Source: Methanotrichaceae archaeon (GTDB lineage: Archaea > Halobacteriota > Methanosarcinia > Methanotrichales > Methanotrichaceae). Taken from it: a stretch of DNA of 64,000 nucleotides. Both the position numbers and the translations under genes were made by a program. A model generated the notes under the pieces. It searched no databases and was not told the DNA's origin. It was given only the letters and a program-made list of their open reading frames with translations. Shown piece by piece: positions 7,921-45,260 of the stretch. The DNA is taken from positions 123,590-187,589 of the forward strand of contig CAWJYS010000021.1 of NCBI GenBank assembly GCA_963847095.1. Direction: 5' to 3'. Position 1 is the stretch's first letter. The number at the start of each line of letters is the position of its first letter.

Positions 7921-8163
7921 ATGGTAGAGTTATCTCCGGATGATATAGATAAGATAGCAAACAAGGTCTTTGCAAAAATCGCTGAATCTATGATAAGAAA
8001 AGAGACTGGCGAGCCAACTCCAACCCCGACGCCAACTTGCCCAGAAGGTATGAAATTTGGATGCCCGAATAATGATGCTTTCGGATGTGATATAGGAGTG
8101 TTTGTGTGCACAGGTAAGGGATTCAAATGCCACCCCAAATATGTGGGATTTGAAAGGATATGA
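7921..8163 (+). CDS. Candidate RiPP precursor peptide (leader, PTPTPTPT linker, 5-Cys core)
   Basis: 80 aa reading MVELSPDDIDKIANKVFAKIAESMIRKETGEPTPTPTPTCPEGMKFGCPNNDAFGCDIGVFVCTGKGFKCHPKYVGFERI. There is no signal peptide, and it sits 81 nt upstream of an rSAM/SPASM gene. Confidence 0.45.
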   Translation: MVELSPDDIDKIANKVFAKIAESMIRKETGEPTPTPTPTCPEGMKFGCPNNDAFGCDIGVFVCTGKGFKCHPKYVGFERI

Positions 8164-8243
8164 AATCCAATATTTATAAGTTGGGCGGAGGCAAAATCCA
8201 GCATTAACTCAAACGCAGATTCATATTCTGATGGTAAGGCATC

Positions 8244-9422
8244 ATGCAAAGAGATATAATAAATGGGATTAGCAGTACTTTATTAGATCCTGATAACTTA
8301 ACCTCTTTCTGCATGAGCTTAAAAGAAGAGTTCAATTATACTCCGGAAGATTGCAGATCCTTCATTTATCAAGTAACTAAACAAATAAATGCAAAGCTAT
8401 TCCCCCCGATTACTGCATTAGAGCTGATAGTAACAGAAGACTGTAACCTAAGATGCGCATATTGCTTTGAGAAAGGTATGATTGGACGCGAGAAGATGTC
8501 TCTCAAAGTAGCTCAGGCAGCGATTGATCTTCTATTTGATTATTCTCAGGAGGAGAAAGACCTTTATATAACCTATTTCGGTGGAGAACCGCTTCTAAAC
8601 TTTCCTTTAATAAAATCTATTACTGAATATGTAGTGAAAAAGGAAGAATTCTCAGGGAAGAAAGTAGAATTCAGCATGACCAGTAATGGGGTTCTCCTCA
8701 ATGAATCAATGGCAGAATACCTTGCAATGCATAAGATAAATGTACTCTTAAGTATCGATGGATCTAAATTATCACATGATCTCTGCAGAGTAGATAAAAA
8801 AGGGCGCGGTACTTTTGAAAGATCAATAAAAGGATTGAAGATACTTAAGAAGTTTCAGCCGTGGATAGGAACAAGAATGACCGTTGTACCTGGTAATGTG
8901 CAAAGATTATACGAAGATGTAGTGGAGCTTCACGATCTAGGCATAAACCAATTTATCATTTGCCATGCCACGGGAATAGAATGGTCTAAAGAGGATATCG
9001 AGTCCTTTAGTTTGCAGATGAGAAAAATAGCGCATTGGTATAGGGAGAAATCCAGCAAAAATCTAAGGATATCTGTGCTAGATGAAGAAGATAGTGGATC
9101 AAGTTTTTTTGGCTGTCACGCTGCCAGAAATAGCATTTCCGTATCTGCAAACGGAGAGATATCTCCCTGTTCGAAGATTCTATCTTTGAATAATAAACGA
9201 TTGATATATAAGTTGGGCGATGTTGAATACGGCCTGATTAATGTTCTCAACAGGGCAGAGTTAATAAGTTGCTCAAAGCTTCGATCTGCTTGTAATGCGC
9301 TTCAGATAGCTGAAAGTTTCAGAGGAGGCTGCTTTGCAGCTAATTATGAGGATAATGGCGACATATTCCAGCCAAGTATTCAGGACCATGTATTCTCATT
9401 ACAATATCGATCTCTGTCATGA
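8244..9422 (+). CDS. Radical SAM enzyme with a C-terminal SPASM-type auxiliary-cluster domain (peptide-modifying maturase family)
   Basis: CNLRCAYC (CxxxCxxC) radical-SAM motif, followed by C-terminal Cys-rich CSKILS...CSKLRSACNALQ...GGCFAA. Confidence 0.85.
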   Translation: MQRDIINGISSTLLDPDNLTSFCMSLKEEFNYTPEDCRSFIYQVTKQINAKLFPPITALELIVTEDCNLRCAYCFEKGMIGREKMSLKVAQAAIDLLFDYSQEEKDLYITYFGGEPLLNFPLIKSITEYVVKKEEFSGKKVEFSMTSNGVLLNESMAEYLAMHKINVLLSIDGSKLSHDLCRVDKKGRGTFERSIKGLKILKKFQPWIGTRMTVVPGNVQRLYEDVVELHDLGINQFIICHATGIEWSKEDIESFSLQMRKIAHWYREKSSKNLRISVLDEEDSGSSFFGCHAARNSISVSANGEISPCSKILSLNNKRLIYKLGDVEYGLINVLNRAELISCSKLRSACNALQIAESFRGGCFAANYEDNGDIFQPSIQDHVFSLQYRSLS

Positions 9423-9454
9423 AGATCATTGCTAACGGTGACTATTCTGGTCAA

Positions 9455-9590
9455 TCCTCAAGGTATATTCCTCCTTTAGCTGGCTATAGCCATATAATCC
9501 AAAATAGCGCAAAGTAATTCACAGCAGAACTTGCCATCATCTTAAGAAGAGATTAAGGTAAAAGTTATTTGTGGAAGTTCCGGTAACTCA
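9455..9590. repeat. Copy 1 of a 135-bp direct repeat (promoter/leader-like)
   Basis: About 80% identical to 9893-10030. Shared core: ggctatagccatataa.ccaaaatagcgcaaagta. Confidence 0.6.
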
Positions 9591-9665
9591 GAACCTTAAG
9601 TAGAACTTTATCAGCCTTGATTAGCTACCAAATGAATTAATACTAGTAGTGTATTTAGCGGTTTT

Positions 9666-9776
9666 ATGGCAAACACACAAACAGATAAGAAGGTCGGTAA
9701 AGGAGAAGAAGAATCTAAAAAGGCCGGAAAAAATACAGGAGATACAACAGAAAAAGTAGTGGTGGTCAAAAGATAA
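9666..9776 (+). CDS. Small Lys-rich ORF (36 aa) downstream of repeat copy 1
   Basis: Reads MANTQTDKKVGKGEEESKKAGKNTGDTTEKVVVVKR. The only support is its position after a repeated upstream module. Confidence 0.2.
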   Translation: MANTQTDKKVGKGEEESKKAGKNTGDTTEKVVVVKR

Positions 9777-9892
9777 TCAGAATTCTTTCCGTTTTTTATA
9801 TTTTAGGACTTACGATTCGCAGAAAACTTCTTATAAATTTCTAATTTGACCTTTACGGCATGGATTTCCTGCTCGGATGGATGATTAGACAT

Positions 9893-10030
9893 GCCTTAAG
9901 GTATATTCACTCCATTAGGCGGCTATAGCCATATAAGCCAAAATAGCGCAAAGTATTTCATAGCTAAGCTTACCACCTTTTCAAAAAGAGATTAAAGCAA
10001 AGATAGTTAGCGGAAGTTCTGGAAATGAAG
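9893..10030. repeat. Copy 2 of the 135-bp direct repeat, immediately upstream of CDS 10038
   Basis: See copy 1. Confidence 0.6.
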
Positions 10031-10037
10031 GGATGAA

Positions 10038-10664
10038 ATGGACCTTAATTTAACAGGTGAACTTTGGGGTATGCCTATTAGTTTTATAGGCCAAATGACG
10101 GAAGAATCATCTATAGAGATTACTGATTGGTTACCTTCATTAATATCAATCGTCGTCGTGATAATAGGCGGTTTCATAACATATTCATCAACGATAAGTA
10201 TAGAAGAAAGAAAACTACAATATGAACTAAAAAAGAAAGCTTATTTTGATGTATTGGATGTAGTTCCTAAAATGGATGAAGTAATGAAATCTTGGGATAT
10301 ATATTGGTCTAATTACAATTCGCTTGATCGTGAAATGGAGAGGTTACAAACTGATAGGCCGAATTATATACAGAAAGACAAAGTTATAGTGGAAAGACTA
10401 AAAGAATCGGCAGATTTATTACAATCATATCAGATAAAAATACTAATTTGCGCTAATGAAGACGTAACCACTAGTTTTGATAAGGTAATGAACATGTTTA
10501 AAGATGAATTAAAGAGGTATGATTCATCTAACGAAGGTAAATATGATACCTTTAGTGACGAGCCTTATGATACCTTTAGCGGTATCCTATTCAAGGAATT
10601 AATACCAGCAATGAGAAATGATTTAATGAAAAGCAAAAAACAATGGTGGAAATTTTGGAAATAA
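10038..10664 (+). CDS. Hypothetical membrane-anchored protein
   Basis: 208 aa with one N-terminal TM segment (LISIVVVIIGGFITY). AT-rich. Confidence 0.5.
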   Translation: MDLNLTGELWGMPISFIGQMTEESSIEITDWLPSLISIVVVIIGGFITYSSTISIEERKLQYELKKKAYFDVLDVVPKMDEVMKSWDIYWSNYNSLDREMERLQTDRPNYIQKDKVIVERLKESADLLQSYQIKILICANEDVTTSFDKVMNMFKDELKRYDSSNEGKYDTFSDEPYDTFSGILFKELIPAMRNDLMKSKKQWWKFWK

Positions 10665-10974
10665 TTTTTATTTTTCTTTCATTCCCAGAGGTCACTCTGT
10701 TAACATGTTCATTCCATAGTTTATGAGAATAACCTCTTCCTGGAGCACACCATCACGATATCCATACCTTTACCAATATAAGGAGATTACAGAATTAGGG
10801 AGGGAGGATAGACCCATAAGGAGGCAAGCTTTTTCCTATCAGATCTACTCCCAATCTCATAATGTGATTTGTTCTAATATATAGATTGTGAGACAATATA
10901 AACGTTTAAATGTCATGTACCAATGATATAGAAGTTATTAAAAGCAAAATGATACAAACAGTTGGACGGGGGAA

Positions 10975-11277
10975 ATGGTCCGATATAGACCTGCTATCAA
11001 GATCGTGCTAAGGATTCTTGAGTGCATAGCTACAAGGCAATCAAGTGGGCGGGCCTTAAAAACTCATATAATCCAATGTGCAAACCTGAAGACCACTTCC
11101 GCTGAAAAGTATCTTGAGATGCTGAGAGAGGCGGGGTATGTCATTGAGAATAGAGAGAACTGGGGGGAGCGTGTGGTCATTGTATATGAGCTGACCCCTT
11201 TAGGGAGAGAGCGGTATAACTGGTTCAATAGGATCAATACCGAGCTTTTCAAGCCAAATGAATGGCTGGATGAGTGA
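10975..11277 (+). CDS. Small winged-helix transcriptional-regulator-like protein
   Basis: 100 aa with an archaeal wHTH-like pattern (TSAEKYLEMLREAGYV...ELTPLGRE). Confidence 0.5.
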   Translation: MVRYRPAIKIVLRILECIATRQSSGRALKTHIIQCANLKTTSAEKYLEMLREAGYVIENRENWGERVVIVYELTPLGRERYNWFNRINTELFKPNEWLDE

Positions 11278-11636
11278 TAATTACGGTCGAGGCCAATAAT
11301 AATCTTACAGATAGCTCTTATGAGCTGGTTGAGAGGATTGAGCGCAAAAGGATGTTGTTGACTGTAATCGTTATCGCTTGTTTTGTTCTTGCACCTATAG
11401 GAATAGGCAAAACTACTCATTCTATCATAGCAACATCTCACGAGAAAGGAGATTGGTCGAATACAAATATAGCTTCCACAGGAATTATTTTTGCAATTTC
11501 GGCTATGCTACTTGCTATGGGTATAAAGAAATATAAGGTGATCAAAGACTTAAAAAGCAAGCTAGCGCAGATGCAACTTTTTGAAGAGACAATCTATAAT
11601 GAGGTGCTAAAGTCAAATATGCGCCAATTGGAGTAG
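11274..11636 (+). CDS. Small membrane protein
   Basis: 120 aa with two hydrophobic segments. Its start overlaps the stop of 10975-11277. Confidence 0.4.
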   Translation: MIITVEANNNLTDSSYELVERIERKRMLLTVIVIACFVLAPIGIGKTTHSIIATSHEKGDWSNTNIASTGIIFAISAMLLAMGIKKYKVIKDLKSKLAQMQLFEETIYNEVLKSNMRQLE

Positions 11637-11686
11637 ACGATTATCAATTATCTGACAACCAAATGAAACCTAAAAACCAATGTCGG

Positions 11687-11740
11687 ATGGGGCCACTGCG
11701 ATTTGAACGCAGGTCACAAGACCCCCAGTCTTGTAGGATA
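11687..11740 (-). repeat. 54-nt perfect duplicate of the 3' part of tRNA-Pro(GGG), from the anticodon stem to the discriminator: att-site-like island boundary
   Basis: Identical to 21295-21348. Identity ends exactly at the tRNA discriminator on one side and inside the D-arm region on the other. Confidence 0.8.
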
Positions 11741-12220
11741 TCATTGAGCTTACGATTTCAATCCAAGGCTTTGTCCATAGAGCGCTTTATTCATATAGAG
11801 AAGATGAAGGCTTCTTAGGCCGCTTTAAAAGGTATGTGAAAGGAGTAGAGCCTTCGAATCTGATGGAGTTGATTTCATCTCGGAGGCTCTTTATTAGCAA
11901 AGAAATGGCACTGGATGATTTGATTCTCCCGAACGAAGCGTGATATGAATTTATCCAGTGCAACAACGGCATTGAGGAGGCTTATGGCTTGCGACCTTCT
12001 GCCTGGGTGAGCTGCCATGGGCAGGAGCTTTGAGAGCGTGAGGATAGGCGCGAAGTATGTCTCGGTCAAATGGCCGAAGGATGGATGATTAGGGGAATAA
12101 TCGGATTCGTAGGCATGGCCCGTGGATCTCATAATACTGTGATTCCTTCCTTCAACGATTACTCCATTATCTTGAGCAGCAAGAAAGGTATTCCAGCTAT
12201 CCGGGAGGTTTGTTATGCAG

Positions 12221-13782: not shown

Positions 13783-15011
13783 TAGAAGAGCGGAAAGCCA
13801 ATAAGGGCAAAGGAGGTAGGAGGGAAAAGCTCTTATCGGCTTTCGCCGAAGTCTATATAGACAATTGCCGAGATATATAGGTTTCGGCTTGAGTATGTAG
13901 GTAGGAGTCCTCCAGCAAGCAAGTCGAACTCCATTTTTCAGCCTCTCCTATACCTATCAGCCAGCTCCGATCCCTTATCCGCTAGGGGAATCTCATAACA
14001 GATCCTGGGTTTGTCATACCTGGCCAAATGTACAGATCTTTTTTCCAAACGAGGCGCATAATGGTCCACAGATACACACCCGCGAGCGCAGAAGAATCAG
14101 ATCACATTGGAGGCCTTCTCGTAAGGTTGCTTTGTAGACGATATGCCTGTCCTGTCAAGCCCTCGAGCATAACTAATCCATGGCGCACAGGTCTGGAGAC
14201 CGCCAAGGAGATAACAATACCACACAGGCTGTAGTTACTCCAAGGCTTCCTCCAGGCGTAGTGACGGACATTCCTGAAGATCAAACCGTAGAGTTGTATC
14301 CTGGGGTCCCCGCGCCCATTAGCTATCCCATCAGAGCAGTACAGAGCGGGACATATGCAGTCATCTCTCAGATAGCATACGCAGAGAACGGAACCTGGCG
14401 AGAGCTGCTGCTAGAGTCGCCTTTCACAGCCGAGGGAGAGATAGAATCTCCTCTTTTAGAGTAGTTTCAAATGATACCAGGCATCGAAATAACAGACGGC
14501 GGAGTGCCTATGGTTGAAGCTCCTTCCTAGGAAACCTCCTCGGCAAATGATAGTTCGTAATGGCGGAGATTTGCATCTCTATTATCGTGTGCTGAATATG
14601 TCCATTAAATCCGTACGCAGCTATCTACTCATTTAACATCAGTTATCAACACAGCACAATATAAAATGTACAAGGAGGGGTAGCCCTGAGATACCATTAG
14701 AGGTCTACCACATCGTTTATATCGTCGAATGCCGAGTAGGGTATCGGCAAAGTCGAGCAACATCAGTTTCCCTCCCAATTGTGACATCCTCGGCTTTGCC
14801 CTTAATCGCTTTATGTGGATATATTGGACGATAATCGCTTGAATACTCATCGTCCACTTAATTGCAGTTTGATGAGTCGTATGGCCTATATCTGCCATAC
14901 CTTTTTGCATTAATTCTAATTTTCTCTATGGATAATAGTAGGAACTATGAGCCATATGACCAAAAGGGTCACCCTACCCGAGCTTTCATGCAGCCTATTG
15001 AGCGCATCGGC

Positions 15012-15197
15012 TCACTGCAATGCATCCAGAATCTTAGTTAAAGCAGCGAGCCTGCCTTCAAGCTCCTCTTTAAGGATAACTACCGACGGGGCCTCGCCCA
15101 GGACCTTCATCAAGCCCTCTGAAATGGCTGTGAGGCCGAATGCTGTTATTGCTGCCTGAGGCGTAATCTCGTCCTCGTCGGCATTCTCCCAGAGCAT
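15012..15197 (-). pseudogene. C-terminal fragment of the multi-copy unknown gene family
   Basis: ADEDEITPQAAITAFGLTAISEGL...LEGRLAALTKILDALQ matches the C-terminus of 15732-16352. The 3' flank gagcgcatcggctcactgcaatgcatcc is conserved. Confidence 0.45.
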
Positions 15198-15219: not shown

Positions 15220-15432
15220 TTGTATAAAGAGATGAAGACATTACGTTATAGAATTCAACTCATACGGGAGGATGACGGGAGTTACACAGTGATAGTCCCA
15301 GCCCTGCCTGGCTGCCTGACCTCTGGCGAAACTGTAGAGGAGGCAATAGAGATGGCAAAGGAGGCCATAGAGGGCTACATACAGAGCCTAGCTGCCAGAG
15401 GGTGGAGATCCCAATGGAAGAAGACAGGATAG
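15220..15432 (+). CDS. hicB: HicB-family antitoxin (UPF0150-like)
   Basis: YTVIVPALPGCLTSGETVEEAIEMAKEAIEGYI motif. Sits directly upstream of a HicA-like gene. Confidence 0.7.
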   Translation: MYKEMKTLRYRIQLIREDDGSYTVIVPALPGCLTSGETVEEAIEMAKEAIEGYIQSLAARGWRSQWKKTG

Positions 15433-15447
15433 AGACCACTGTGACTG

Positions 15448-15681
15448 TTGAGGCCAATGCCTAAATTACCTGTCATACCTCCGCAGAAACTGGCCAAAGT
15501 CCTGGAAAAGAAGGGTTTTGTGTTGGACAGGATTAATGGAAGCCATCACATATACATCCACCCCGAAACTAATGCAACCATCGTAATTCCATTCCATAAA
15601 AAGGAGATGAAGAAAGGTCTGCTTCTGGAGGCCTTGAAGCAGGCCGGGATTACAAGGGAAGAATTGATAGATCTTCTGTAA
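15448..15681 (+). CDS. hicA: HicA-family mRNA-interferase toxin
   Basis: KKGFVLDRINGSHHIYIHPETN motif (YcfA/HicA). Confidence 0.7.
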   Translation: MRPMPKLPVIPPQKLAKVLEKKGFVLDRINGSHHIYIHPETNATIVIPFHKKEMKKGLLLEALKQAGITREELIDLL

Positions 15682-15731
15682 TATGTTTCGCTGCTCTCCG
15701 TGCTTTCAGGTTAACTCCTGAGCGCATCGGC

Positions 15732-16352
15732 TCACTGCAATGCATCCAGGATCCTGGTTAAAGCAGCGAGCCTGCCCTCAAGCTCCTCTTTAAGGAGAAC
15801 TATCGACGAGGCATCACTAAGAACCTTTATCAATCCCTCTGAAATAGCCGCGAGGCCGAACGCCGCTATTGCCGCCTGAGGTGTAATCTCATCCTCGTCG
15901 GCGTTCTCCCACCCAGAGCGCAAACCTTCCGACCATTCGCCATAGCGGTGCATCCTTGCCAGCACGCCGTTCTCATAGAGAATCAGCCTGTACTCGCTGA
16001 AAAAGCCAGAACCCTTCTCAAGCTGTACCCGCTCTTCTTGAGTCAGAATGACAACCTCACGGCGGTAATATTGCTCGCAGTCATCGCTGAGCAGCGGCAC
16101 CAGGGGCGTGACCTTCTCCAGGATTGATTTCAGGACAGCCGCCTCTCTATCCAGGGTTTCCTTTCTTAGAATGGCAATCTTGGGGGCTATGGGCTGAAGC
16201 TCATCCAGTGCCGTGTTCAGGCCTGATAACATGCCTGTGGTTACTGGATTGGTCGCTATTAGCACGGCGTTCTCGGAAAGGTTTGGGGCGGACATTAGAT
16301 TGCCACCACCGCTTTGGTTAGGGCGCTTGCAGGAGACGAGGGTGGTATGCAT
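15732..16352 (-). CDS. Full-length member of a three-copy unknown gene family. The true start is possibly the Met at about 16295.
   Basis: 206 aa. It has a decayed paralogue at 7379-7821 and a fragment at 15012-15197. No recognisable domain. Confidence 0.55.
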   Translation of the reverse strand: MHTTLVSCKRPNQSGGGNLMSAPNLSENAVLIATNPVTTGMLSGLNTALDELQPIAPKIAILRKETLDREAAVLKSILEKVTPLVPLLSDDCEQYYRREVVILTQEERVQLEKGSGFFSEYRLILYENGVLARMHRYGEWSEGLRSGWENADEDEITPQAAIAAFGLAAISEGLIKVLSDASSIVLLKEELEGRLAALTRILDALQ

Positions 16353-16399: not shown

Positions 16400-16415
16400 C
16401 ATCTCAACTCACCAA
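16400..16415. repeat. Left arm of a 16-bp perfect inverted repeat flanking the RHH gene
   Basis: catctcaactcaccaa is the reverse complement of 16715-16730. Confidence 0.7.
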
Positions 16416-16512: not shown

Positions 16513-16695
16513 ATGGAGTCTGAGAAGAAAACACCAACTAAAATGAATATATCGCTATCACCAGAAGTAGCAGCTGCGTTGAGGAAATTCGCCTTTGAGT
16601 CCACAGGGCAAATGAGAGGAGTTTCAGAGGTTGCAGAGAAGGCGATACGCGAATATTTGGAAAAGCATGGTGTTAAGATTAAAGGGCAGGCATAA
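16513..16695 (+). CDS. Ribbon-helix-helix (CopG/Arc-like) DNA-binding protein
   Basis: MNISLSPEVAAALRKFAFESTG...AEKAIREYLEKH is a beta-alpha-alpha RHH pattern. The start is likely the internal Met at 16543. Confidence 0.55.
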   Translation: MESEKKTPTKMNISLSPEVAAALRKFAFESTGQMRGVSEVAEKAIREYLEKHGVKIKGQA

Positions 16696-16714
16696 GCCCG
16701 CCCTGCATCTCTTC

Positions 16715-16730
16715 TTGGTGAGTTGAGATG
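16715..16730. repeat. Right arm of the 16-bp inverted repeat
   Basis: ttggtgagttgagatg. It is preceded by the hairpin gcagg-N11-cctgc at the RHH stop. Confidence 0.7.
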
Positions 16731-16989
16731 CAATAAGATCTCTATTGCTCTTTAAAGATAACTTTATCGATCTTTTCACTGAAAGCCTACAAAACGCCTA
16801 TCTATATGGCGATAAGCCTTATTTATTAGAATCGGGCAAAAACCAGATATAAGCTATTAGTCTTAAAATCCTCTACTTTATAAATATCGATCCATTACAT
16901 TCTCTAATAAATCCCCCTGATCAGTTCGAAATGGAGGCGGACTTAAATACTGTTGCTTAACTACCTATCTACTAACAGGGGTGCAGTCC

Positions 16990-17040
16990 AATAATTAGGC
17001 TTTTTCTGCCCGGAGAACAACATAAACTATATCTAAGTTA
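16990..17040 (+). promoter_or_regulatory. Conserved upstream module A (TTTTCTGCCCGG.GAACAACATAAACTATATCT.AGTTATCGCC)
   Basis: Four near-identical roughly 45-nt modules lie 40-60 nt upstream of four consecutive genes. The core is TATA-like. Confidence 0.55.
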
Positions 17041-17081
17041 TCGCCAATATCATCACCACAAAAAATAAAGGGAACGGGTAA

Positions 17082-17636
17082 TTGGTGAAAGATGAGCTAG
17101 AAATTTTATACAAAAATTTAGATCACATATCTAAAGCATATTTATCAACACAATCAGAAATAATTGCATGGGAAGCTATTTTTGCACTGGTGGTGGGCCA
17201 AATTTTTCTGGCTTTCATACAGCTAAATGATGATCAAAGAACAGGAATGATTGGCTCAGTTGTTATTATATTAGGATCTATTTTTTCACTGATTTGGTTT
17301 GCAGTATTTCCTAAAACTCAGCATTATCAAAGAGATAGGGTTAGAAAACTGAAAAAGTTAGAAGAACGCATTAGACGTATAGATCCAGAATTTTTAGGTT
17401 ATTCACATCCCGACAAAGACGTCGGAAAAATTAAAGCATGGCATATACTTAAAATAATTCCAGTTATATTTTCTATAATTTGGATATTTCTGTCCATAAT
17501 GTACCCTAATAAACAGCATACTACATATATCATAACGCTTGGAATCACAGTTATATGCTTTATAGCGATTTGGATTTTTATTTTGTGTTTATATGAAGAT
17601 TGGATCAAGAAATGGTGGTTACCTTCTCAGGGATAG
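17082..17636 (+). CDS. Polytopic membrane protein
   Basis: 184 aa with four hydrophobic segments. Preceded by module A. Confidence 0.5.
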   Translation: MVKDELEILYKNLDHISKAYLSTQSEIIAWEAIFALVVGQIFLAFIQLNDDQRTGMIGSVVIILGSIFSLIWFAVFPKTQHYQRDRVRKLKKLEERIRRIDPEFLGYSHPDKDVGKIKAWHILKIIPVIFSIIWIFLSIMYPNKQHTTYIITLGITVICFIAIWIFILCLYEDWIKKWWLPSQG

Positions 17637-18027
17637 ATGCAATACATTCAAACGCCGGTCTTAGTAAAGTGTGCATGAAGTTGGATAATAACCAAGATAG
17701 ATCCTAATATCCCTGCAAAGACTGTGATTAAACTTGGAGCATCAAGATTTGCAGGAAATAACTTGAAACTCACCCATGTAAGGAAACATGAACCTAGGAG
17801 CAAACCGCTTATTTTTGCCCATGATCCTTGGTGAATCTGCATTCATCATAAAGGTATTAACCTTAAAGATAAATAGTTTTTGTGAACCTAAAATCCATAT
17901 TTTGACTACATATTGTGATTAAGTATTCTCATTGCACATAGCATTTGTCTTTTTCTGTTGCTTTTGGTAAATGTCCGGAAGAAGAGATAAAAGAAAAGGG
18001 CAATTGGTGGCGGTTCTGGAAATAAGA

Positions 18028-18312
18028 TTAAGGAATAGGGTATTTAAGTCCACCACTCACCACAAAATCAAAGATCATTGCCGGAAGTTTGACATGGGTA
18101 ATTACAATTTTACCGCTGTACACTTTATTACCTGATTTAAAAACACCTTCAGCATCACCGGCATTAATTCCAAATTCGTTTGATTCCGCTCTTCCTCTCC
18201 AGCTATTCATACCAACTTGACTAACACTGTGATATATTTGCCAATCACCAATGGAAATGGATTTTCCATCCATTGTTATATTCCCACCATATCCGGCTAA
18301 GCGTTCGGACAT
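18028..18312 (-). CDS. Hypothetical small protein (94 aa)
   Basis: ORF only. Confidence 0.25.
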   Translation of the reverse strand: MSERLAGYGGNITMDGKSISIGDWQIYHSVSQVGMNSWRGRAESNEFGINAGDAEGVFKSGNKVYSGKIVITHVKLPAMIFDFVVSGGLKYPIP

Positions 18313-18370
18313 ATAATGATAGATTCATGGGTAAATATATAAGGGTTAGGCTCAGGGTGAAACTATTAAC

Positions 18371-18420
18371 GTTTTCTACCGGGTGAACGACGTAAACTAT
18401 ATCTCAGCTACCGCCATCCC
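18371..18420 (+). promoter_or_regulatory. Conserved upstream module B
   Basis: See module A. Followed by GGAGGGAGAAGAGC-TTG-AAA-CTC. Confidence 0.55.
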
Positions 18421-18444
18421 CATCAATAACGGAGGGAGAAGAGC

Positions 18445-18981
18445 TTGAAACTCAAAGAATTTGTAATTTTGATAGCCATGGTTCTAGCGGTGCTATTGAT
18501 AGCTGGATGCGCTTCAAGCGGAAAAAATATAGGACCATATACAGTAACTTTTGATGGTATTGATGAAGAATACAAATACGGCGGTGAAAGTTCTAAGGCA
18601 AAGGAGTTTAAAACAGATTCAGGGGTTTCATATACAGAATATAGTAGGATGTTTTGGAAAGAGAATATGGAAGGAGATATAACAATTGGAGTCAATACTT
18701 ACGCTATCCCGATGTATAATGATAACCAAAATCCAAGAGAAGTTTTAAAAAGTCTTATAGAACCAAATGATAATATAACGATAGAAAATATAGAGATGGA
18801 TGGCAAACCCGGCATTTTGGCAAAAGAAAAGTTTATTTGGGCGGGCGGTGAACCCGGTGCTACATATATGCTATTTTATTGGCTTGATCCAAAAACTAGA
18901 GTTGGAGCTTATTTTATGGAAAGCCCAAAGAATAAATGGGATGATGCAAGCAAAGCAATGATGTCCATCAAGGTATCCTGA
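18445..18981 (+). CDS. Secreted lipoprotein-like protein (TTG start)
   Basis: MKLKEFVILIAMVLAVLLIAGCASS signal peptide with a lipobox Cys. The RBS GGAGG lies 9 nt upstream of TTG. Confidence 0.6.
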   Translation: MKLKEFVILIAMVLAVLLIAGCASSGKNIGPYTVTFDGIDEEYKYGGESSKAKEFKTDSGVSYTEYSRMFWKENMEGDITIGVNTYAIPMYNDNQNPREVLKSLIEPNDNITIENIEMDGKPGILAKEKFIWAGGEPGATYMLFYWLDPKTRVGAYFMESPKNKWDDASKAMMSIKVS

Positions 18982-19035
18982 ATACCCATCCCTTTTTTAG
19001 CCACTTACCTTATTGAAATGCTCATGAAGCTAAGG

Positions 19036-19085
19036 CTTTTCCTACCCGGTGAACAACATAAACTATATCTGAGTTATCGCCATCA
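19036..19085 (+). promoter_or_regulatory. Conserved upstream module C
   Basis: Carries the identical leader GGAGGGAGAAGAGC-TTG-AAA-CTC seen in module B. Confidence 0.55.
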
Positions 19086-19110
19086 CCTTCATCAAAGGAG
19101 GGAGAAGAGC

Positions 19111-19737
19111 TTGAAACTCGTTGAAGCTGGAATAATCGCTATAACACTATTTTGTTTAGCAGGGAATGCATATGGAGTTATGCAAGTCTATGATAGTGAT
19201 TTTGGCAAAATTAAAGTTGATTTGCCCATGGTGCTAATCCCAAAAGATGGGAATACAGGTACTTGGATAGACTTAGTTAAGGAAGGATCAGAAAAGCCTG
19301 TCATCTCTATACGCATGCAAACAACTTATGGGGAAGATTTTAAAAAATACGCAACTTCATCAGGCTTTAAGAGTATACCGATTGAAACAACAACCAATGA
19401 CGGATATAAAATAATTTATTACTCTGACCACAGTGGCACTAATAGTCAATATCAACCTGTATATCATTATACTGCGTTTATTGATTACTTGAAAGATAAG
19501 GGTAAGATAGTGCAAATGTGGACTTATTCAGAAGTAAATGGGAAAGAAGGAGCAGTAGCTAGATTTGATAAAGATCAATTCCTTGAAATATCCAAATCCT
19601 TTGCTGTTATAAGTGAATCAGAAGCGCAAGCTATAGTGGCGGAAACTGCAAAAACAAACCAATCGCCGGGATTTGGATCATTCTTCGCTATTCTGAGCCT
19701 TCTCGGAGCTATTTTTATCATGCAAAAGATAAAGTAG
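19111..19737 (+). CDS. Secreted protein with a PGF-CTERM archaeal sorting signal (TTG start at 19111; the tracked ORF from 19018 is over-extended)
   Basis: N-terminus (M)KLVEAGIIAITLFCLAGNAYG. C-terminus SPGFGSFFAILSLLGAIFIMQKIK, i.e. a PGF motif, TM helix and basic tail. Confidence 0.6.
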   Translation: MKLVEAGIIAITLFCLAGNAYGVMQVYDSDFGKIKVDLPMVLIPKDGNTGTWIDLVKEGSEKPVISIRMQTTYGEDFKKYATSSGFKSIPIETTTNDGYKIIYYSDHSGTNSQYQPVYHYTAFIDYLKDKGKIVQMWTYSEVNGKEGAVARFDKDQFLEISKSFAVISESEAQAIVAETAKTNQSPGFGSFFAILSLLGAIFIMQKIK

Positions 19738-19996
19738 ATATAGATATTTTATTTTTTCCTACTTCTTTATTTTCCCGGTTCCTTAGAGATCATCCATAAT
19801 ACCCCAAATAGAGCTACAAAGACAGCTACCACATTAGGAGCATCAGGAAATAGCCGAAATACCGCCCATGTAAAGAAGATAGATGCTAGAACTAACCCGC
19901 CAATTCTAGCCCATGATTCTTGATGAATGAAGGACATCCATCATTGAAATATTAGTTTCGTAGGTATAAGGGTTTGGCTCAGGGCGTAACTTTTAG

Positions 19997-20045
19997 CCTT
20001 TTCTGCCCGGTGAGCAACGTAAACTATATCTAAGTTACCGCTGTC
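19997..20045 (+). promoter_or_regulatory. Conserved upstream module D
   Basis: See module A. Modules B and D share an additional roughly 30 nt upstream (ggctcagggyg.aac). Confidence 0.55.
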
Positions 20046-20104
20046 ACTACCATCAAAAAAAAGTCAAACCCGGAGGGTAAAATATTTTCTCAAATTTTGG
20101 GGTA

Positions 20105-20773
20105 TTGATACAGAATGCGCAATCATCAAGTGTGCTGATTTGGGTAGCAATTATATCTGCACTATCAGCTATAGCATCAGCTTCAATATCAGCTTATCTA
20201 GTCGGTAAAGTGAATTATGATACAAATAAGAAGTTAGAGCAACAAAGGTTTGAGAACAACAACAGATTAGAAAAAGAGAAAGCTAAAAATCTAAAAATCC
20301 AAAAACAATGGGAAGTATTCAGCAAGTTAAAAGGTATTCAAGCGGCATTACCTCAAGATTATATAAATACATATCAAACTGTTGTAGGAATCGTCAGTCA
20401 ACAAGCTGCATCTAGACTACATTCTGAAGAAGAAAATCAACGACTTCATATTGATGAAGCTAGAAGGTTAATTGATAGATCATACGAAAATAAAAAAACA
20501 TTTGCTAGGAATCGACAAAAATTATATGAAATAATAGGTTTAATTCTGATTTTATTTCCAAATAAACCCGAATTGCATGAAAAGATCAATCCTATATATT
20601 CACAAATAACAGTATTTGAATCCGAATTTAATGAAACTAATCTAATAGAAGAGATTGAAGCCTTAGTTCCACATATTTTTGGCGATCTTAAGAAATGGGT
20701 TGAAACATTTGATCATGAAAAAGTAGAAGAGAATCTTGATAAGATTAAAGAATGGAAAACGGGGAAAGTATGA
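20105..20773 (+). CDS. Membrane-anchored coiled-coil protein
   Basis: N-terminal TM segment (VLIWVAIISALSAIASASISAYLVG), then a charged coiled-coil region. Confidence 0.5.
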   Translation: MIQNAQSSSVLIWVAIISALSAIASASISAYLVGKVNYDTNKKLEQQRFENNNRLEKEKAKNLKIQKQWEVFSKLKGIQAALPQDYINTYQTVVGIVSQQAASRLHSEEENQRLHIDEARRLIDRSYENKKTFARNRQKLYEIIGLILILFPNKPELHEKINPIYSQITVFESEFNETNLIEEIEALVPHIFGDLKKWVETFDHEKVEENLDKIKEWKTGKV

Positions 20774-21295
20774 AAAAGTAAACCAACTAACAGTAGAAAA
20801 CGTATGTCAACAGCTAAAGGATTTACTTAATTATCTTCAAGCAGAAATACATACTTCGGAAGAGGATTCTATACTGATCATTAATTTTTTTCAAAGGTTA
20901 CTCTAAATTTAGGATTTAGGGTTTCCCATCTCCTCTTTTATATAGCCGTGTTTTAAGCATTCTGTTTTGCTTTATTGAAATGCTCATGGGAAGCTGGATA
21001 ATTACCGCGATTGATGCTAATATCCTGGCAAAGACAGTAGCCAATAATAGTATACCTCTATAAGCCCCTTACAAGCCCATAGCGAAGCTTTGCAGATAGC
21101 TTGAAGGGTAAACCTTATTATGTAGATCCATGTGCAATTTTGGGCCTACCATTGCTTCGCGGCATATTTTCAAGCCCTTAGAGTAACAAGACTGGCGACT
21201 GGTATCCAAAAAAGCTTATATCTTAGAAGCCCTATCTCACATTAAAACATGGAGAAAGTGATACAATCAAAATCACTACCAGCAAAATGTTTCCA

Positions 21296-21368
21296 TGGGG
21301 CCACTGCGATTTGAACGCAGGTCACAAGACCCCCAGTCTTGTAGGATACCAGGCTACCCTATGGCCCC
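21296..21368 (-). tRNA. tRNA-Pro (anticodon GGG), no encoded CCA
   Basis: The reverse complement GGGGCCATAGGGTAGCCTGGTATCCTACAAGACTGGGGGTCTTGTGACCTGCGTTCAAATCGCAGTGGCCCCA folds as a cloverleaf: acceptor stem 7 bp, anticodon stem CAAGA/TCTTG with loop CTGGGGG, and T arm CTGCG-TTCAAAT-CGCAG. Confidence 0.85.
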
Positions 21369-22179: not shown

Positions 22180-22525
22180 GGTTGTGGGATGGGTCCTTCT
22201 GTCTTACTTAGTTTTCGGTAATTGATTCAGCCTATAGCTAGCAAGGTAGCTGCCTTGATCACTTGCTCATTAGTGAGTTATCATTAACTATGTTACGATT
22301 CGAATTTTCTATACAGATATCAGAATTTTCGATATGCTTGGGCATCACCAAGTATTTATCTTCAAAAAACATAGAAGAAGTGGCGCTTGAGAGATTATCT
22401 CTGGGTTTCATATCGGAAAGGATGGATAGAGATGAGGGGAGCGAGCTTGAAATATTTAGTGATTATATTATTATATGCTGTAACAATGTGTATAGCGGGC
22501 ACGAGCGCCATGAAGATAGATTTGG

Positions 22526-23482
22526 ATGAAAAGGGTGTGCCGAACTGTCGATTACGGCTTTGTATCTAAACAGGGAGATAGTTCGGCTACTAAACAGGAT
22601 GGGTGGACATATGTCGGGAAACAAAGAAACCCCTTAACGGTCTCTACTCAGGGCATGACCTACTATAATCAATATCTGCAGGGCAACGAAAGCTCCAGGG
22701 ATCTTTTTTTGAACTGCTCAGATTGGCTTTTAGATAACGCCGCGAAGCGGGATAACATCCTGGTCTGGGAATACAAATATAGTTGGCCGACTTATAACAA
22801 TACTCCGCCCTTTTTGTCCGGCATGTCACAGGCCGCAGCGATCAAAGTCCTGGCTACGGCCTACAAACTCACCGGCGAAGAAAAATATAAGGACGCCGCC
22901 AAAAAAGGATTAGGGGCTTTCTTCATAGAAGTGAAAAATGGAGGAATAACGTATAAAGATAAAGAAGGCTGGTGGTACGAAGAGTACGCCCAACCTGGCG
23001 CAAAGATCGAACCTAGAGTTTTAAACGGCCACATGTTCGCCCTTATGGACCTCAATGAATATTATAATTTAACCCAGGATGGGCAGGCCAAACAACTCTT
23101 TAATCTTGGGTTAAGCGATCTAAAGGCACGCCTCGAAGATTATGACGCGAGGAACGGGAGCCGCTACGACAGAGTGGGAAATCTGGCCGTCTTCAAATAT
23201 CATGATATCCATGTAGGCCAGCTTCACGCGCTTTATAAGAATACGGGAGATTCTTACTTTAAACTTTACAGAAATCGCTGGGCTCAAAAAGAACTGGTTA
23301 CGCTCCAGAAGGACTTGGAAAAAACTAACAAAGCCATTTCCAAGCTCGAATTGTACCAGTCTGATTTAACCAAGAAGAAAGCAGACGTCGAGACCATGAT
23401 CGCCGAAGAAGAGAACCAAGAGCTAACCCAAACACCCACCCGGCAGAATTCACTCTTTGAATTCATCTCAAAGCTATTTTAA
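22526..23482 (+). CDS. Hypothetical protein, possibly a D-glucuronyl C5-epimerase C-terminal-domain-like fold. The N-terminus is uncertain (see finding).
   Basis: WPTYNNTPPFLSGMSQAAAIKVL and NGHMFALMDL segments. The family assignment is from recollection only. Confidence 0.35.
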   Translation: MKRVCRTVDYGFVSKQGDSSATKQDGWTYVGKQRNPLTVSTQGMTYYNQYLQGNESSRDLFLNCSDWLLDNAAKRDNILVWEYKYSWPTYNNTPPFLSGMSQAAAIKVLATAYKLTGEEKYKDAAKKGLGAFFIEVKNGGITYKDKEGWWYEEYAQPGAKIEPRVLNGHMFALMDLNEYYNLTQDGQAKQLFNLGLSDLKARLEDYDARNGSRYDRVGNLAVFKYHDIHVGQLHALYKNTGDSYFKLYRNRWAQKELVTLQKDLEKTNKAISKLELYQSDLTKKKADVETMIAEEENQELTQTPTRQNSLFEFISKLF

Positions 23483-24193: not shown

Positions 24194-25399
24194 GTTACAA
24201 ACTCGATCTACAGAATACTTATAGTTTCTTCCCGGCGGTTCCCTTCACTGCAGGCAGTGTGCCCTTGACTGGACTGAAGTAGCTTTTTGCCTGGTTCCGA
24301 AACTGAGTTATGCGCGTGAAAGGTATTTATCTTGGGACGAGAGGGACGAATGAAGGATATAGGGCCTGGCCAAATTACAGAAATCTCGTTACACTACCCA
24401 CGACGTATTAAGGAGTATGTGCCTCTTCTCAGTTAAAACAGTGGTCATTATCCAATCGATTAGGCCTGGCATACGGGTTATTTTTTCTTCCAAAGGGGCT
24501 GAGATGGCATATTCGTAGCCTTCACAGCTACGCTTCACAGAATACTTTCGCTCTATCAACGCCTCCTTAATTCCTTCTTCGAATACTGAGACAAGATTCC
24601 CGTTTGAGTCGGGCGAAAGGCCATCAATGATGTGTGCTCTTATGTCTTCTCCTTGCGAATTGCAGGTCCGGATGCAGAGGGTGGCCTGATCATCGGTTAA
24701 GAGGACGAAGAAGTACCTATCGGGATGAGTCAGAATGTCACAACGCAGCTTTTCAAATGTGCATTCAATTCCAATCTTTATCGAAGTAATTCCCCCTTGT
24801 TAAATCATTTTGGTCGAATCCGAGGCGAGCCTTTCGAAGTCATCATCAGGCTTTGCTTTTCAGAGAGAATTTGGTAAGCTTCTTTTAGATTGACTCTGCC
24901 GAAGATTATAATTTAAATTAATCCGTGTCCAATAGTTAAAAATTTTTCGGTCTGTTGGCGGTGATATGATTGTTATATACGGCACTTACATCTCTTACAT
25001 CTTGACGCTACTAAGTTGTAATTAGAATGTATTCGGATCTTCATGCTGAAGATAAGCTCATAATATGCGGTTAAACAATACCCCTATTCTTCTAATATAT
25101 TTTTTATGTATTCTATCAATATATTTCTATAATATATTCTTCTAATATATACTTTTTAACATGCTGTCCAACATTCGGTGACTGCACAACCTCTCCCACT
25201 GTCAGACTAGCTGCAGATGCCAGACCAGCTCAAGCTGCAGGACTTAGTGCGAATCCCCATAAGATCCAGCTATAAATGCTAATTGTAGATGAGGGCGTCT
25301 TTTTTTCATTGTTTTATTTTAACGTAACGTATATCTGCAATATATTATCATTATTTGCCACCGCCCCAAAAATATATAAAAACATATCAATAGATAGTG

Positions 25400-44789: not shown

Positions 44790-45155
44790 AGAACAGATAG
44801 AAACAAGGTGAATGTAGTCCGATGCCCACTATAAAGTTTGACGATCAGGGCAGAATTCTGCTCCCGGCCGGTATGATCTCCATGGCGTCGGCAAAGGCAT
44901 CGATGGCCAGCAGCTCCCCGCCTCCCCGGCGGATGCATACGCCCGAAGCCTCATGGTCAGCTCTACCTCTAGAGCGCCGCCTCCCCAGAAGCCTGCCGCT
45001 TAAATTACTCTACTTTCCAACTTCTGTCATTTGACTTCAGCCTTGGCAGTATGTACTAAATCGAAGACGATCTATAATCCTCATAAAACTATGTCAGGTG
45101 CATAAGACTTTGCCTATCTCGATTATCAATTTTCGCAGATGATCAGCGTGGATCA

Positions 45156-45260
45156 GAGCAACCTTCTAATACAATTAATCCTCGCCTTAAACACACATGC
45201 TTACCTTTCACGCCTCATGTAAAGGATTAGAGTAACCTTCTAATACAATTAATCCTCACC
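45156..45260. promoter_or_regulatory. Two 32-bp direct repeats upstream of fdhA
   Basis: agagcaaccttctaatacaattaatcctcgcc at 45156-45187 and agagtaaccttctaatacaattaatcctcacc at 45229-45260. Confidence 0.5.

Follow-up and report, generated by a model that had tools for sequence, protein, structure and literature searches.

A candidate promoter block repeated before four membrane- and secreted-protein genes in a tRNA-bounded archaeal island

Four genes for membrane or secreted proteins, situated beside a tRNA-Pro gene in the 64-kb stretch of Methanotrichaceae DNA analysed here (hereafter the window), are each preceded by a copy of the same block, which we consider likely to be a promoter of approximately 60-65 bases, inherited from plasmid-like elements and duplicated or converted within a degraded island (Table 1). 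Under this hypothesis, each block would be a full archaeal core promoter in itself, with RACRTAAA as the BRE-like element, CTATATCT as the TATA-like element and approximately 20 nt to a start site in CCATCA; approximately 25 nt of upstream sequence would also belong to it. The promoter type would be native to the families of genes B and C, which plasmid- or provirus-like elements of Methanothrix-type methanogens carry as cargo, and a backbone-less remnant of such cargo would adjoin tRNA-Pro in this strain. At that location, copies of the promoter would have come to stand before four genes, namely the paralogues B and C and the non-homologous A and D, with gene conversion maintaining the similarity of the copies; the outcome would be four single-gene units that share orientation and promoter and possess their own Shine-Dalgarno (SD) sites. 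We regard the case as one of ordinary promoter duplication and concerted evolution, and not as a new kind of system.

Table 1. Features of the island (positions are those of the window; nt, nucleotides; aa, amino acids)
Feature	Position	Strand	Description
57-nt direct repeat of tRNA-Pro 3' part	11687-11743	-	left end of island
Arc/ribbon-helix-helix-like protein	16513-16695	+	60 aa, just left of array; PHROG 3180 E 6e-4, Pfam RHH only E 0.14
Module A	16997-17065	+	candidate promoter copy with consensus match
Gene A	17082-17636	+	184-aa membrane protein, four hydrophobic segments, Pfam 8xMP E 4.5e-12
s1	17648-17842	-	64 aa, two hydrophobic segments; convergent with gene A; s2 paralogue
Gene 3'-end remnant	17978-18025	+	EEEIKEKGNWWRFWK*, read from sequence
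94-aa ORF	18028-18312	-	function not assigned; divergent from gene B; identical product called in L020
B/D upstream extension, B copy	18338-18371		minus strand reads AACCCTTATATATTT
Module B	18363-18447	+	candidate promoter copy, SD (GGAGGG 18431-18436) and TTG start
Gene B	18445-18981	+	178-aa lipoprotein-like secreted protein; predicted Mog1/PsbP-like fold
Flank after gene B	18982-19030		aligns with 3' flank of s3 remnant (20940-20992)
Module C	19031-19113	+	candidate promoter copy, SD and TTG start; orthologous to L011 upstream region
Gene C	19111-19737	+	208-aa PGF-CTERM protein; predicted Mog1/PsbP-like fold
s2	19767-19937	-	56 aa, two hydrophobic segments; convergent with gene C, divergent from D
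B/D upstream extension, D copy	19965-19998		minus strand reads AACCCTTATAC
Module D	19990-20067	+	candidate promoter copy, then A8 run and orphan GGAGGG (20072-20077)
Gene D	20105-20906	+	N-terminal membrane anchor and long helical part
s3	20991-21044	-	remnant of third s-family gene, C-terminal half only
tRNA-Pro(GGG)	21296-21368	-	right end of island

Extent and conservation of the block

Scanning of the window, the 64 kb of this genome that the search covered, with a 43-nt consensus returned four matches, all on the plus strand (module A 17002-17044 with no mismatch; B 18372-18414, C 19038-19080 and D 19999-20041 with one each), and none is expected by chance, given that 0 of 100 shuffled sequences produced any. 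A preliminary description had placed a block of approximately 45 nt before four genes, at 16990, 18371, 19036 and 19997; the four sites are borne out by the consensus matches, the exact positions being off by 12, 1, 2 and 2 nt. Alignment of the copies extends the conserved stretch to approximately 60-65 nt (from GGCTTTTCT to CGCCATCACCATCA), over which they are 75-85% identical to each other. The 17-nt upstream half occurs in the window at the same four sites only (0.29 occurrences expected) and the copies agree in it no less than in the core (75-85% identity across all four); this equal conservation fits a copy-and-paste origin, and would be compatible with an extra function of the upstream half. 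A TTC-N8-GAA palindrome considered in this half was dropped, as it is not kept in copy C.

The flanks of the copies differ and the flanking non-coding DNA is unalignable, with the exception of an extension shared by B and D, reported earlier as some 30 nt and measured here as 34 nt, which together with the core forms a 77-nt tract of 84% identity. On the minus strand this extension contains AACCCTTATATATTT before gene B (26 nt before the ATG at 18312), which resembles the tRNA-Pro promoter GAAACCCTTATATGCC and is likely a divergent, near-leaderless promoter, and AACCCTTATAC before gene D (28 nt before the ATG at 19937). Modules B and C are 85% identical over 82 nt and have in common 23 identical nt, GGAGGGAGAAGAGCTTGAAACTC (18431-18453 and 19097-19119), in agreement with the ribosome-binding site, TTG start and first three codons previously noted as shared by the two genes.

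Features of the candidate promoter

In its sequence, the block has the appearance of an archaeal BRE/TATA promoter. The RACRTAAA and CTATATCT motifs are present in 4 of 4 copies (in module A the TATA-like core is TAAACTATATCT, at 17023-17034), and their shape, in a match made by eye and not with a scored model, is that of the tRNA-Pro promoter and other promoters of the window, to which RTAAACTATATCT is similar. The distance between the end of TATATCT and the start codon is 47 nt for A (start at 17082), 40 nt for B (18445), 40 nt for C (19111) and 73 nt for D (20105), which is comparable to host genes in the window. Furthermore, GGAGGG lies 8 nt before the TTG of genes B and C, and a T-run follows genes B, C and D. 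Genes A-D are probably expressed together.

In Methanolobus psychrophilus, the promoters of which were mapped by dRNA-seq, the BRE/TATA-to-start distance is 19-22 nt, and transcription from archaeal core promoters starts about 19-27 nt downstream of the TATA box (PMC5378194). Start sites positioned from the former distance are predicted to fall in the conserved CCATCA at the 3' edge of the block (for module A at approximately 17052-17058, in CATCAC, and for B, C and D at approximately 18422-18426, 19091-19094 and 20052-20055). Two features count against the promoter reading: as a TATA box, CTATATCT is weaker than the common form TTTATATA, and the sequence immediately preceding the predicted start is rich in GC (CGCCATCACC) instead of AT.

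Recurrence on plasmid-like elements

The promoter core recurs upstream of gene C and gene B orthologues on plasmid-like contigs from anaerobic digesters (a model built from the four copies matched L011 at E 2.4e-5 and L021 at E 0.017, and L001 and L013 were matched by alignment), for which reason we take the block to be the native promoter of cargo genes and not a free repeat. The TATA-like control region of the preliminary description gains support from the same observation, as the core is kept at the same position before orthologues of two genes elsewhere. The module is not obligatory for the B and D families, since a D homologue in L024 and a B homologue in L022/L023 are without it.

The window copies are only 47-62% identical to the orthologous promoters, below their mutual identity, and the 23 nt shared by B and C cross a spacer that is variable between orthologues; both observations argue for duplication or gene conversion within the island. 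We infer the conversion, which with four copies is statistically inseparable from parallel change.

Unlike the core, the upstream half counts as absent from L011, L001 and L013 (15-40% identity), and shows a faint similarity (45-55%) to the region upstream in L021. These values bear on a possibility that we entertain tentatively and that would add to the promoter reading, namely that a transcription factor binds the stretch of approximately 25 nt that precedes the BRE (TTTTCTRCCCGGTGAAC), or a weak inverted repeat (GGTGAACAAC / GTTATCGCC) that flanks the TATA box, and switches the four genes together (e.g. in element induction or envelope stress). The restriction of the upstream half to the four sites of the window, its resemblance to L021 and the presence of an Arc-like repressor gene immediately left of the array would be in line with such an operator; against it stand the lack of the half in the other three loci, a palindrome that is poor and not in every copy (folding term -2.08 kcal/mol, one compensatory pair), and the fact that a tract of duplication or conversion would be equally expected to have sharp edges and both halves conserved alike. 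Moreover, a related strain without the array (L019) retains the Arc-like gene, which makes the product of this gene at most a weak candidate regulator.

Searches elsewhere gave no additional copies: exact-pattern scans for the module found no match in species-representative genomes, JGI metagenome contigs or IMG/VR; the C-family alignment, in a protein-guided locus search, gave nothing in genomes, viral or metagenome contigs, and the B-family one nothing in viral contigs; plasmid and phage collections held no match, and a wider profile model, to which the orthologous promoters were added, likewise brought no new copy to light, either in 26 loci or in the window. For this and other reasons we consider it extremely unlikely that the block acts as RNA once transcribed (as a leader, riboswitch or small RNA) or represents a miniature transposable element, either of which a repeated non-coding block of approximately 60 nt beside genes might suggest: copies are lacking from genome, metagenome and viral collections, Rfam finds tRNA only between 14 and 24 kb (E <= 1), the modules show no structure beyond that of shuffled sequence (RNAalifold consensus of 8 pairs, -1.95 kcal/mol, one compensatory pair), the predicted start site is preceded by the greater part of the block, and neither terminal inverted repeats nor target duplications flank the copies.

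Genes behind the candidate promoter copies

The gene descriptions given earlier (a polytopic membrane protein for A, a lipoprotein for B, a PGF-CTERM protein for C, a coiled-coil membrane protein for D) were upheld. Gene A starts at TTG 17082 or GTG 17085 (it was called as 183 aa in L020; ATG 17093 was rejected as out of frame), the signal peptide of the gene B product bears an IAGC lipobox, and gene C matches PGF-CTERM with 20.9 bits (cut-off 18.8). The gene D product carries, judging from its sequence, a single hydrophobic segment at its N-terminus and an extended charged region that looks helical; the reading frame of the gene shifts near 20755-20775, and the last approximately 40 homologue-conserved residues lie in the ORF 20736-20906. 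PADLOC and PHROGs assigned no function to A-D, and the literature on 8xMP and Methanothrix mobile elements yielded nothing usable.

The four genes had been described as otherwise unrelated, which is only partly right: A and D have no mutual similarity (BLASTP), whereas B and C, in spite of showing no detectable sequence homology (BLASTP; hhalign probability 0.5%), share a predicted fold, the predicted structures of both matching solved Mog1/PsbP-like members. We thus consider B and C predicted Mog1/PsbP-like proteins linked by structure only. Given this fold and the occurrence of the same promoter type before their orthologues, the leader shared by B and C is better explained by ancestry and gene conversion than by shuffling, and only A and D would be non-homologous genes that acquired the promoter. 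Alongside the four genes lie members of a small s family: s1 and s2 are 50% identical (E 2e-17), with dN/dS of 0.19 and dS of about 2 (i.e. synonymous sites are saturated), and the s3 remnant was recognised by tblastn (78% over 18 aa) and blastn (82% over 49 nt).

Island setting and decay

The tRNA-bounded island of the preliminary description is confirmed by tRNA-Pro(GGG) and the repeat of its 3' part (21295-21351 matches 11687-11743, 57 nt, 98% identity). Within it, the array (16769-21295) has a GC content of 0.356 (0.467 for the window) and is strain-specific, synteny with L019 stopping at 16768; in a second assembly it is identical across modules A and B. No internal att remnant was found between the low-GC array and the left part of the island, which appears degraded. 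Gene D is frameshifted, s3 truncated and a deletion follows gene B. The gene remnant EEEIKEKGNWWRFWK* resembles both the C-terminus of certain D homologues and the end of the gene that stands before the B orthologues of L021/L022, and the flank after gene B, the T6 run of which is likely a terminator, marks the junction of a deletion by which the 3' flank of an s gene was joined to module C. These junction remnants show that the array was rearranged.

We regard it as unlikely that the module served as a landing pad for cassette exchange, whether integron-like and site-specific or by homologous recombination between promoters of an incoming plasmid and of the island. Such exchange would account for different genes in one orientation with a repeat of approximately 60 nt between them in an integration hotspot, for mosaic junctions and gene remnants, and for the same promoter type on plasmid-like elements with B or C homologues. 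However, no integrase or other recombinase was found in the island (no integrase Pfam match in ORFs scanned between 10 and 23.5 kb; no island match by tblastn with the L024 integrase), the modules form no attC-like hairpin (DNA folding energies -2.2 to -5.5 kcal/mol; z-scores 0.14, 0.65, -0.28 and -0.24), and their identity to plasmid-borne promoters is too low for efficient homologous exchange. The array, moreover, is identical across modules A and B in the second assembly, and recent import of B or C is not visible, as their proteins are only 57-67% identical to their nearest relatives. Similarly, we give little credence to the idea that Methanothrix plasmid-like elements share the module with chromosomal islands as a portable patch of promoter and homology, at which recombination, with no integrase, would let envelope-protein genes be captured, swapped and expressed at once; if true, this would be a promoter-anchored counterpart of the integron. 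The earlier interpretation thus stands as regards control region, island and rearrangement, and is overstated or unsupported as regards the unrelatedness of B and C and a dedicated cassette mechanism, no integrase, attC-like hairpin or terminal repeats having been found.

The decay of the array, the sharp similarity edges and the equal conservation of both halves would also be expected if segmental duplications of fairly recent date had later lost or exchanged their coding parts and left the blocks behind without a function. We consider this quite improbable, since the core is kept at the same position before orthologues in distant elements, each copy is followed, at a spacing expected of a promoter, by an intact start codon and its SD site, the flanking non-coding DNA is unalignable and the synonymous sites of s1/s2 are saturated. 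Nor is the module part of a larger mobile repeat (an alternative raised in the preliminary description).

Significance and comparison with known systems

A promoter duplicated from plasmid-like elements would mean that the cargo genes of such elements bring their own promoter, which is able to spread to unrelated island genes. For uncultured Methanothrix-type methanogens, which are key acetate-using methane producers in digesters and have few genetic tools, it would furthermore supply a promoter that is defined and can be tested, and two families of unannotated archaeal surface proteins are linked to a predicted Mog1/PsbP-like fold.

Archaeal BRE/TATA core promoters (PMC5378194) likewise have an AT-rich octamer after a BRE-like stretch rich in A; the start is predicted here approximately 20 nt downstream, and the spacing of SD site and start codon matches other window genes. 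They differ in that about 15 nt are conserved (approximately 60 nt here), whereas the island holds four near-identical copies within 3 kb, with a non-canonical TATA (CTATATCT) and start sites that are predicted only.

The Mycoplasma vsp, vlp and vsa loci are variable surface lipoprotein gene families with conserved 5' expression regions, and are alike in having a near-identical promoter, leader and first codons before divergent coding bodies, in a surface/secreted gene cluster in which homogenisation within the locus is likely. In contrast, the present array belongs to a mobile-element remnant of an archaeal host, no recombinase, inversion sites or phase-variable tract is shown, only three codons are shared (by B and C only), and A and D are not lipoproteins. 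Integron gene-cassette arrays (archaeal integrons were reported in 2022) are similar in their small, unrelated, same-orientation genes, their repeat of approximately 60 nt and their location in a variable region; here, however, there is no IntI-type integrase, attC hairpin or single common Pc promoter, and each gene would have its own promoter, the repeat being that promoter. Phage T7 has 23-bp near-identical promoters within one genome; although its system, unlike the degraded element described here with its host TBP/TFB-type promoter, has an element-encoded polymerase, the two are alike in that one mobile-element lineage would reuse one promoter, giving co-expression.

Repeated block and its setting

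The array (16769-21295), with a GC content of 0.356 as compared to 0.467 for the window, lies at the tRNA-Pro end of an island bounded by tRNA-Pro(GGG) and a repeat of its 3' 57 nt. In a related strain (L019) identity amounts to 92-94% up to position 16768 and is followed by divergence, while over 16600-18526 a second assembly (L020) differs by five substitutions, all of them outside modules A and B. The cluster names of neighbouring proteins indicate Methanotrichaceae / Methanothrix. No integrase was found within the island, and the segment beside the att repeat (11744-12132, minus strand) likewise contains none, its short ORFs being without Pfam hit (in one of them a GH...T..Y pattern is faintly visible). 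In its left half (flavodoxin, dienelactone hydrolase) the island is unlike mobile DNA in appearance. Left of the array, a HicB/HicA pair (15220-15681) is flanked by a 192-nt direct repeat (15000-15191 and 15720-15911, 88% identity), whose units reproduce the 3' part of a 206-aa gene family that is present in L019 as four copies or fragments.

Coordinates of island boundaries, array genes and consensus matches
Feature	Position	Strand	Remarks
tRNA-Pro(GGG)	21296-21368	minus	island boundary
Repeat of tRNA-Pro 3' 57 nt	11687-11743		other island boundary
Gene A	17082-17636		Pfam 8xMP, E 4.5e-12
Gene B	18445-18981		signal peptide with IAGC lipobox; without Pfam family
Gene C	19111-19737		PGF-CTERM
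Gene D	20105-20773		without Pfam family
Consensus match, module A	17002-17044	+	
Consensus match, module B	18372-18414	+	
Consensus match, module C	19038-19080	+	
Consensus match, module D	19999-20041	+	
s1	17648-17842	minus	
s2	19767-19937	minus	
s3	20991-21044	minus	truncated copy

The preliminary description had reported a block recurring upstream of four genes, and this holds: a 43-nt consensus is matched four times in the window (0-1 mismatches each, all on the plus strand) and in none of 100 shuffled controls. A fifth copy was not found in the 64 kb, profile models included. By alignment the conserved block is longer than the consensus (~60-65 nt, GGCTTTTCT to CGCCATCACCATCA), and self-BLAST recovers pairwise tracts for B/C (82 nt, 85%, covering the SD site, the TTG and two more codons), B/D (77 nt, 84%, beginning 34 nt farther upstream), A/C (50 nt, 92%) and A/D (68 nt, 82%), with 23 identical nt (GGAGGGAGAAGAGCTTGAAACTC) common to B and C. 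The genes behind the block show no similarity by BLASTP (A vs D, B vs C), and the B and C families are unrelated in profile comparison (probability 0.5%). Gene D carries a frameshift near its 3' end (20755-20906), and an ORF in another frame (20736-20906) encodes the ~40 C-terminal residues conserved among D homologues.

A predicted core promoter

In shape the core RACRTAAACTATATCT is like other promoters in the window, and its distances from start codons are similar to theirs. The distance between BRE/TATA elements and mapped start sites is 19-22 nt in Methanolobus (PMC5378194). Applied here, it places the predicted start site in the conserved CCATCA, beyond which the four copies no longer all resemble one another; leaders would then measure ~20 nt (B and C), 27 nt (A) and 53 nt (D). 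The block is unlikely to be an RNA element or a miniature transposon: its secondary structure does not exceed that of shuffled sequence (the consensus fold is weak, with covariation almost nil), it has no match in Rfam and it lacks terminal inverted repeats. On these grounds we take each copy to be a complete core promoter, one native to the cargo families of B and C, and the common TATA-like control region proposed earlier is supported, as a predicted promoter, by sequence and comparative evidence.

The nearest homologues of C (57-67% protein identity) are found on digester contigs that also bear genes for AEP primase, ParA, D5-type helicase, Y1 transposase or restriction-modification, and those of B (58-66%) on similar contigs; the locations of those of D (48-57%) include an integrase-bearing Methanothrix contig. 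The backbone genes of these elements are all absent from the window. Upstream of the C orthologue in contig L011 the sequence (AACATAAAGTATATATTAACTACCGCGATCAACTTCAATAAAGGAGGGA...TTGAAATTC) aligns with module C from its first base (nhmmer E 2.4e-5), L001 and L013 retain CATAAAGTTTATCT and the SD site, and the B orthologue of L021 retains CATAACTATAACTAAGTTAT (E 0.017). The module is absent at the B homologue in L022/L023 and at the operonic D homologue in L024. The retrieved contigs L001-L018, L021 and L022, plasmid- or provirus-like and from anaerobic digesters, share a backbone (HTH_Tnp_1_2, ParA, primase-helicase) and bear a cargo zone for secreted or membrane proteins, among them B or C homologues; they give the impression of a single family of elements associated with Methanothrix.

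The upstream half of the block may be a specific operator, which would not conflict with the promoter reading; this half is missing in the majority of orthologous promoters, and the neighbouring Arc-like gene (16513-16695), which falls within the stretch conserved in L019, is not tied to the array. The Arc-like gene is bracketed by a perfect 16-nt inverted repeat (CATCTCAACTCACCAA, 16400-16415 and 16715-16730; ~0.05 matches expected by chance), both arms of which are kept in L019 (9888-9903 and 10203-10218).

Small genes and junctions of the array

The s family consists of small minus-strand genes with two hydrophobic segments each, convergent with the plus-strand genes (s1 vs s2: 50% identity, dN/dS 0.19, dS about 2). 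The flank downstream of gene B can be aligned with that on the 3' side of s3 as far as the start of module C; an s gene has therefore been lost by deletion after B, where the family survives only as this trace. The extension shared by B and D reads AACCCTTATA on the minus strand, 26-28 nt before ATGs at 18312 and 19937, and is similar to the tRNA-Pro promoter GAAACCCTTATATGCC; it probably acts as a divergent promoter yielding near-leaderless transcripts. T-runs downstream of B, C and D fit separate transcription units. An orphan gene end (17978-18025, ...NWWRFWK*) corresponds to the C-terminus of the gene located ahead of B orthologues in L021/L022, and to that of some D homologues (P0026, P0032) as well, which hints at an ancestral order of a D-like gene followed by B.

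Elsewhere in the window, a C5-epimerase-family gene (22433-22560) has a one-base insertion (ccgaactgtc vs ccgactgtc) relative to Methanotrichaceae HSD58350.1, severing a signal-peptide N-terminus whose start site, GGAGC-N-TTG-AAA, is similar to that of B and C. A second low-GC stretch (8000-12000, 0.38), with a radical-SAM/SPASM gene (8244-9422), is situated immediately left of the att repeat; an AT-rich intergenic tandem repeat (13/26-nt period) occupies 25085-25150, and a 37-nt direct repeat (45150-45186 and 45224-45260, 92% identity, 74-nt spacing) immediately precedes an 835-aa ORF (45262-47766).

Origin of the four copies

The window copies are 75-85% identical among themselves as compared to only 47-62% to orthologous promoters, the SD-to-start spacer (variable among orthologues) is identical in B and C, the block extensions differ according to the pair sharing them, and variable sites support incompatible groupings of the four copies. 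Taken together, these features speak for duplication and gene conversion within the island, and suggest that the promoter was additionally placed before the non-homologous genes A and D. As synonymous sites near the block are saturated, selection may contribute to its likeness, a share that with four copies is inseparable from duplication and conversion. The cassette-style shuffling of unrelated genes envisaged in the preliminary description stands in part, in that the promoter apparently spread to A and D; there is no support for a cassette system of the integron-like or homology-driven sort, since neither a recombinase nor a hairpin nor any trace of recent exchange is seen. We consider that the block, with its predicted promoter role, is a new instance of an already known kind of thing.
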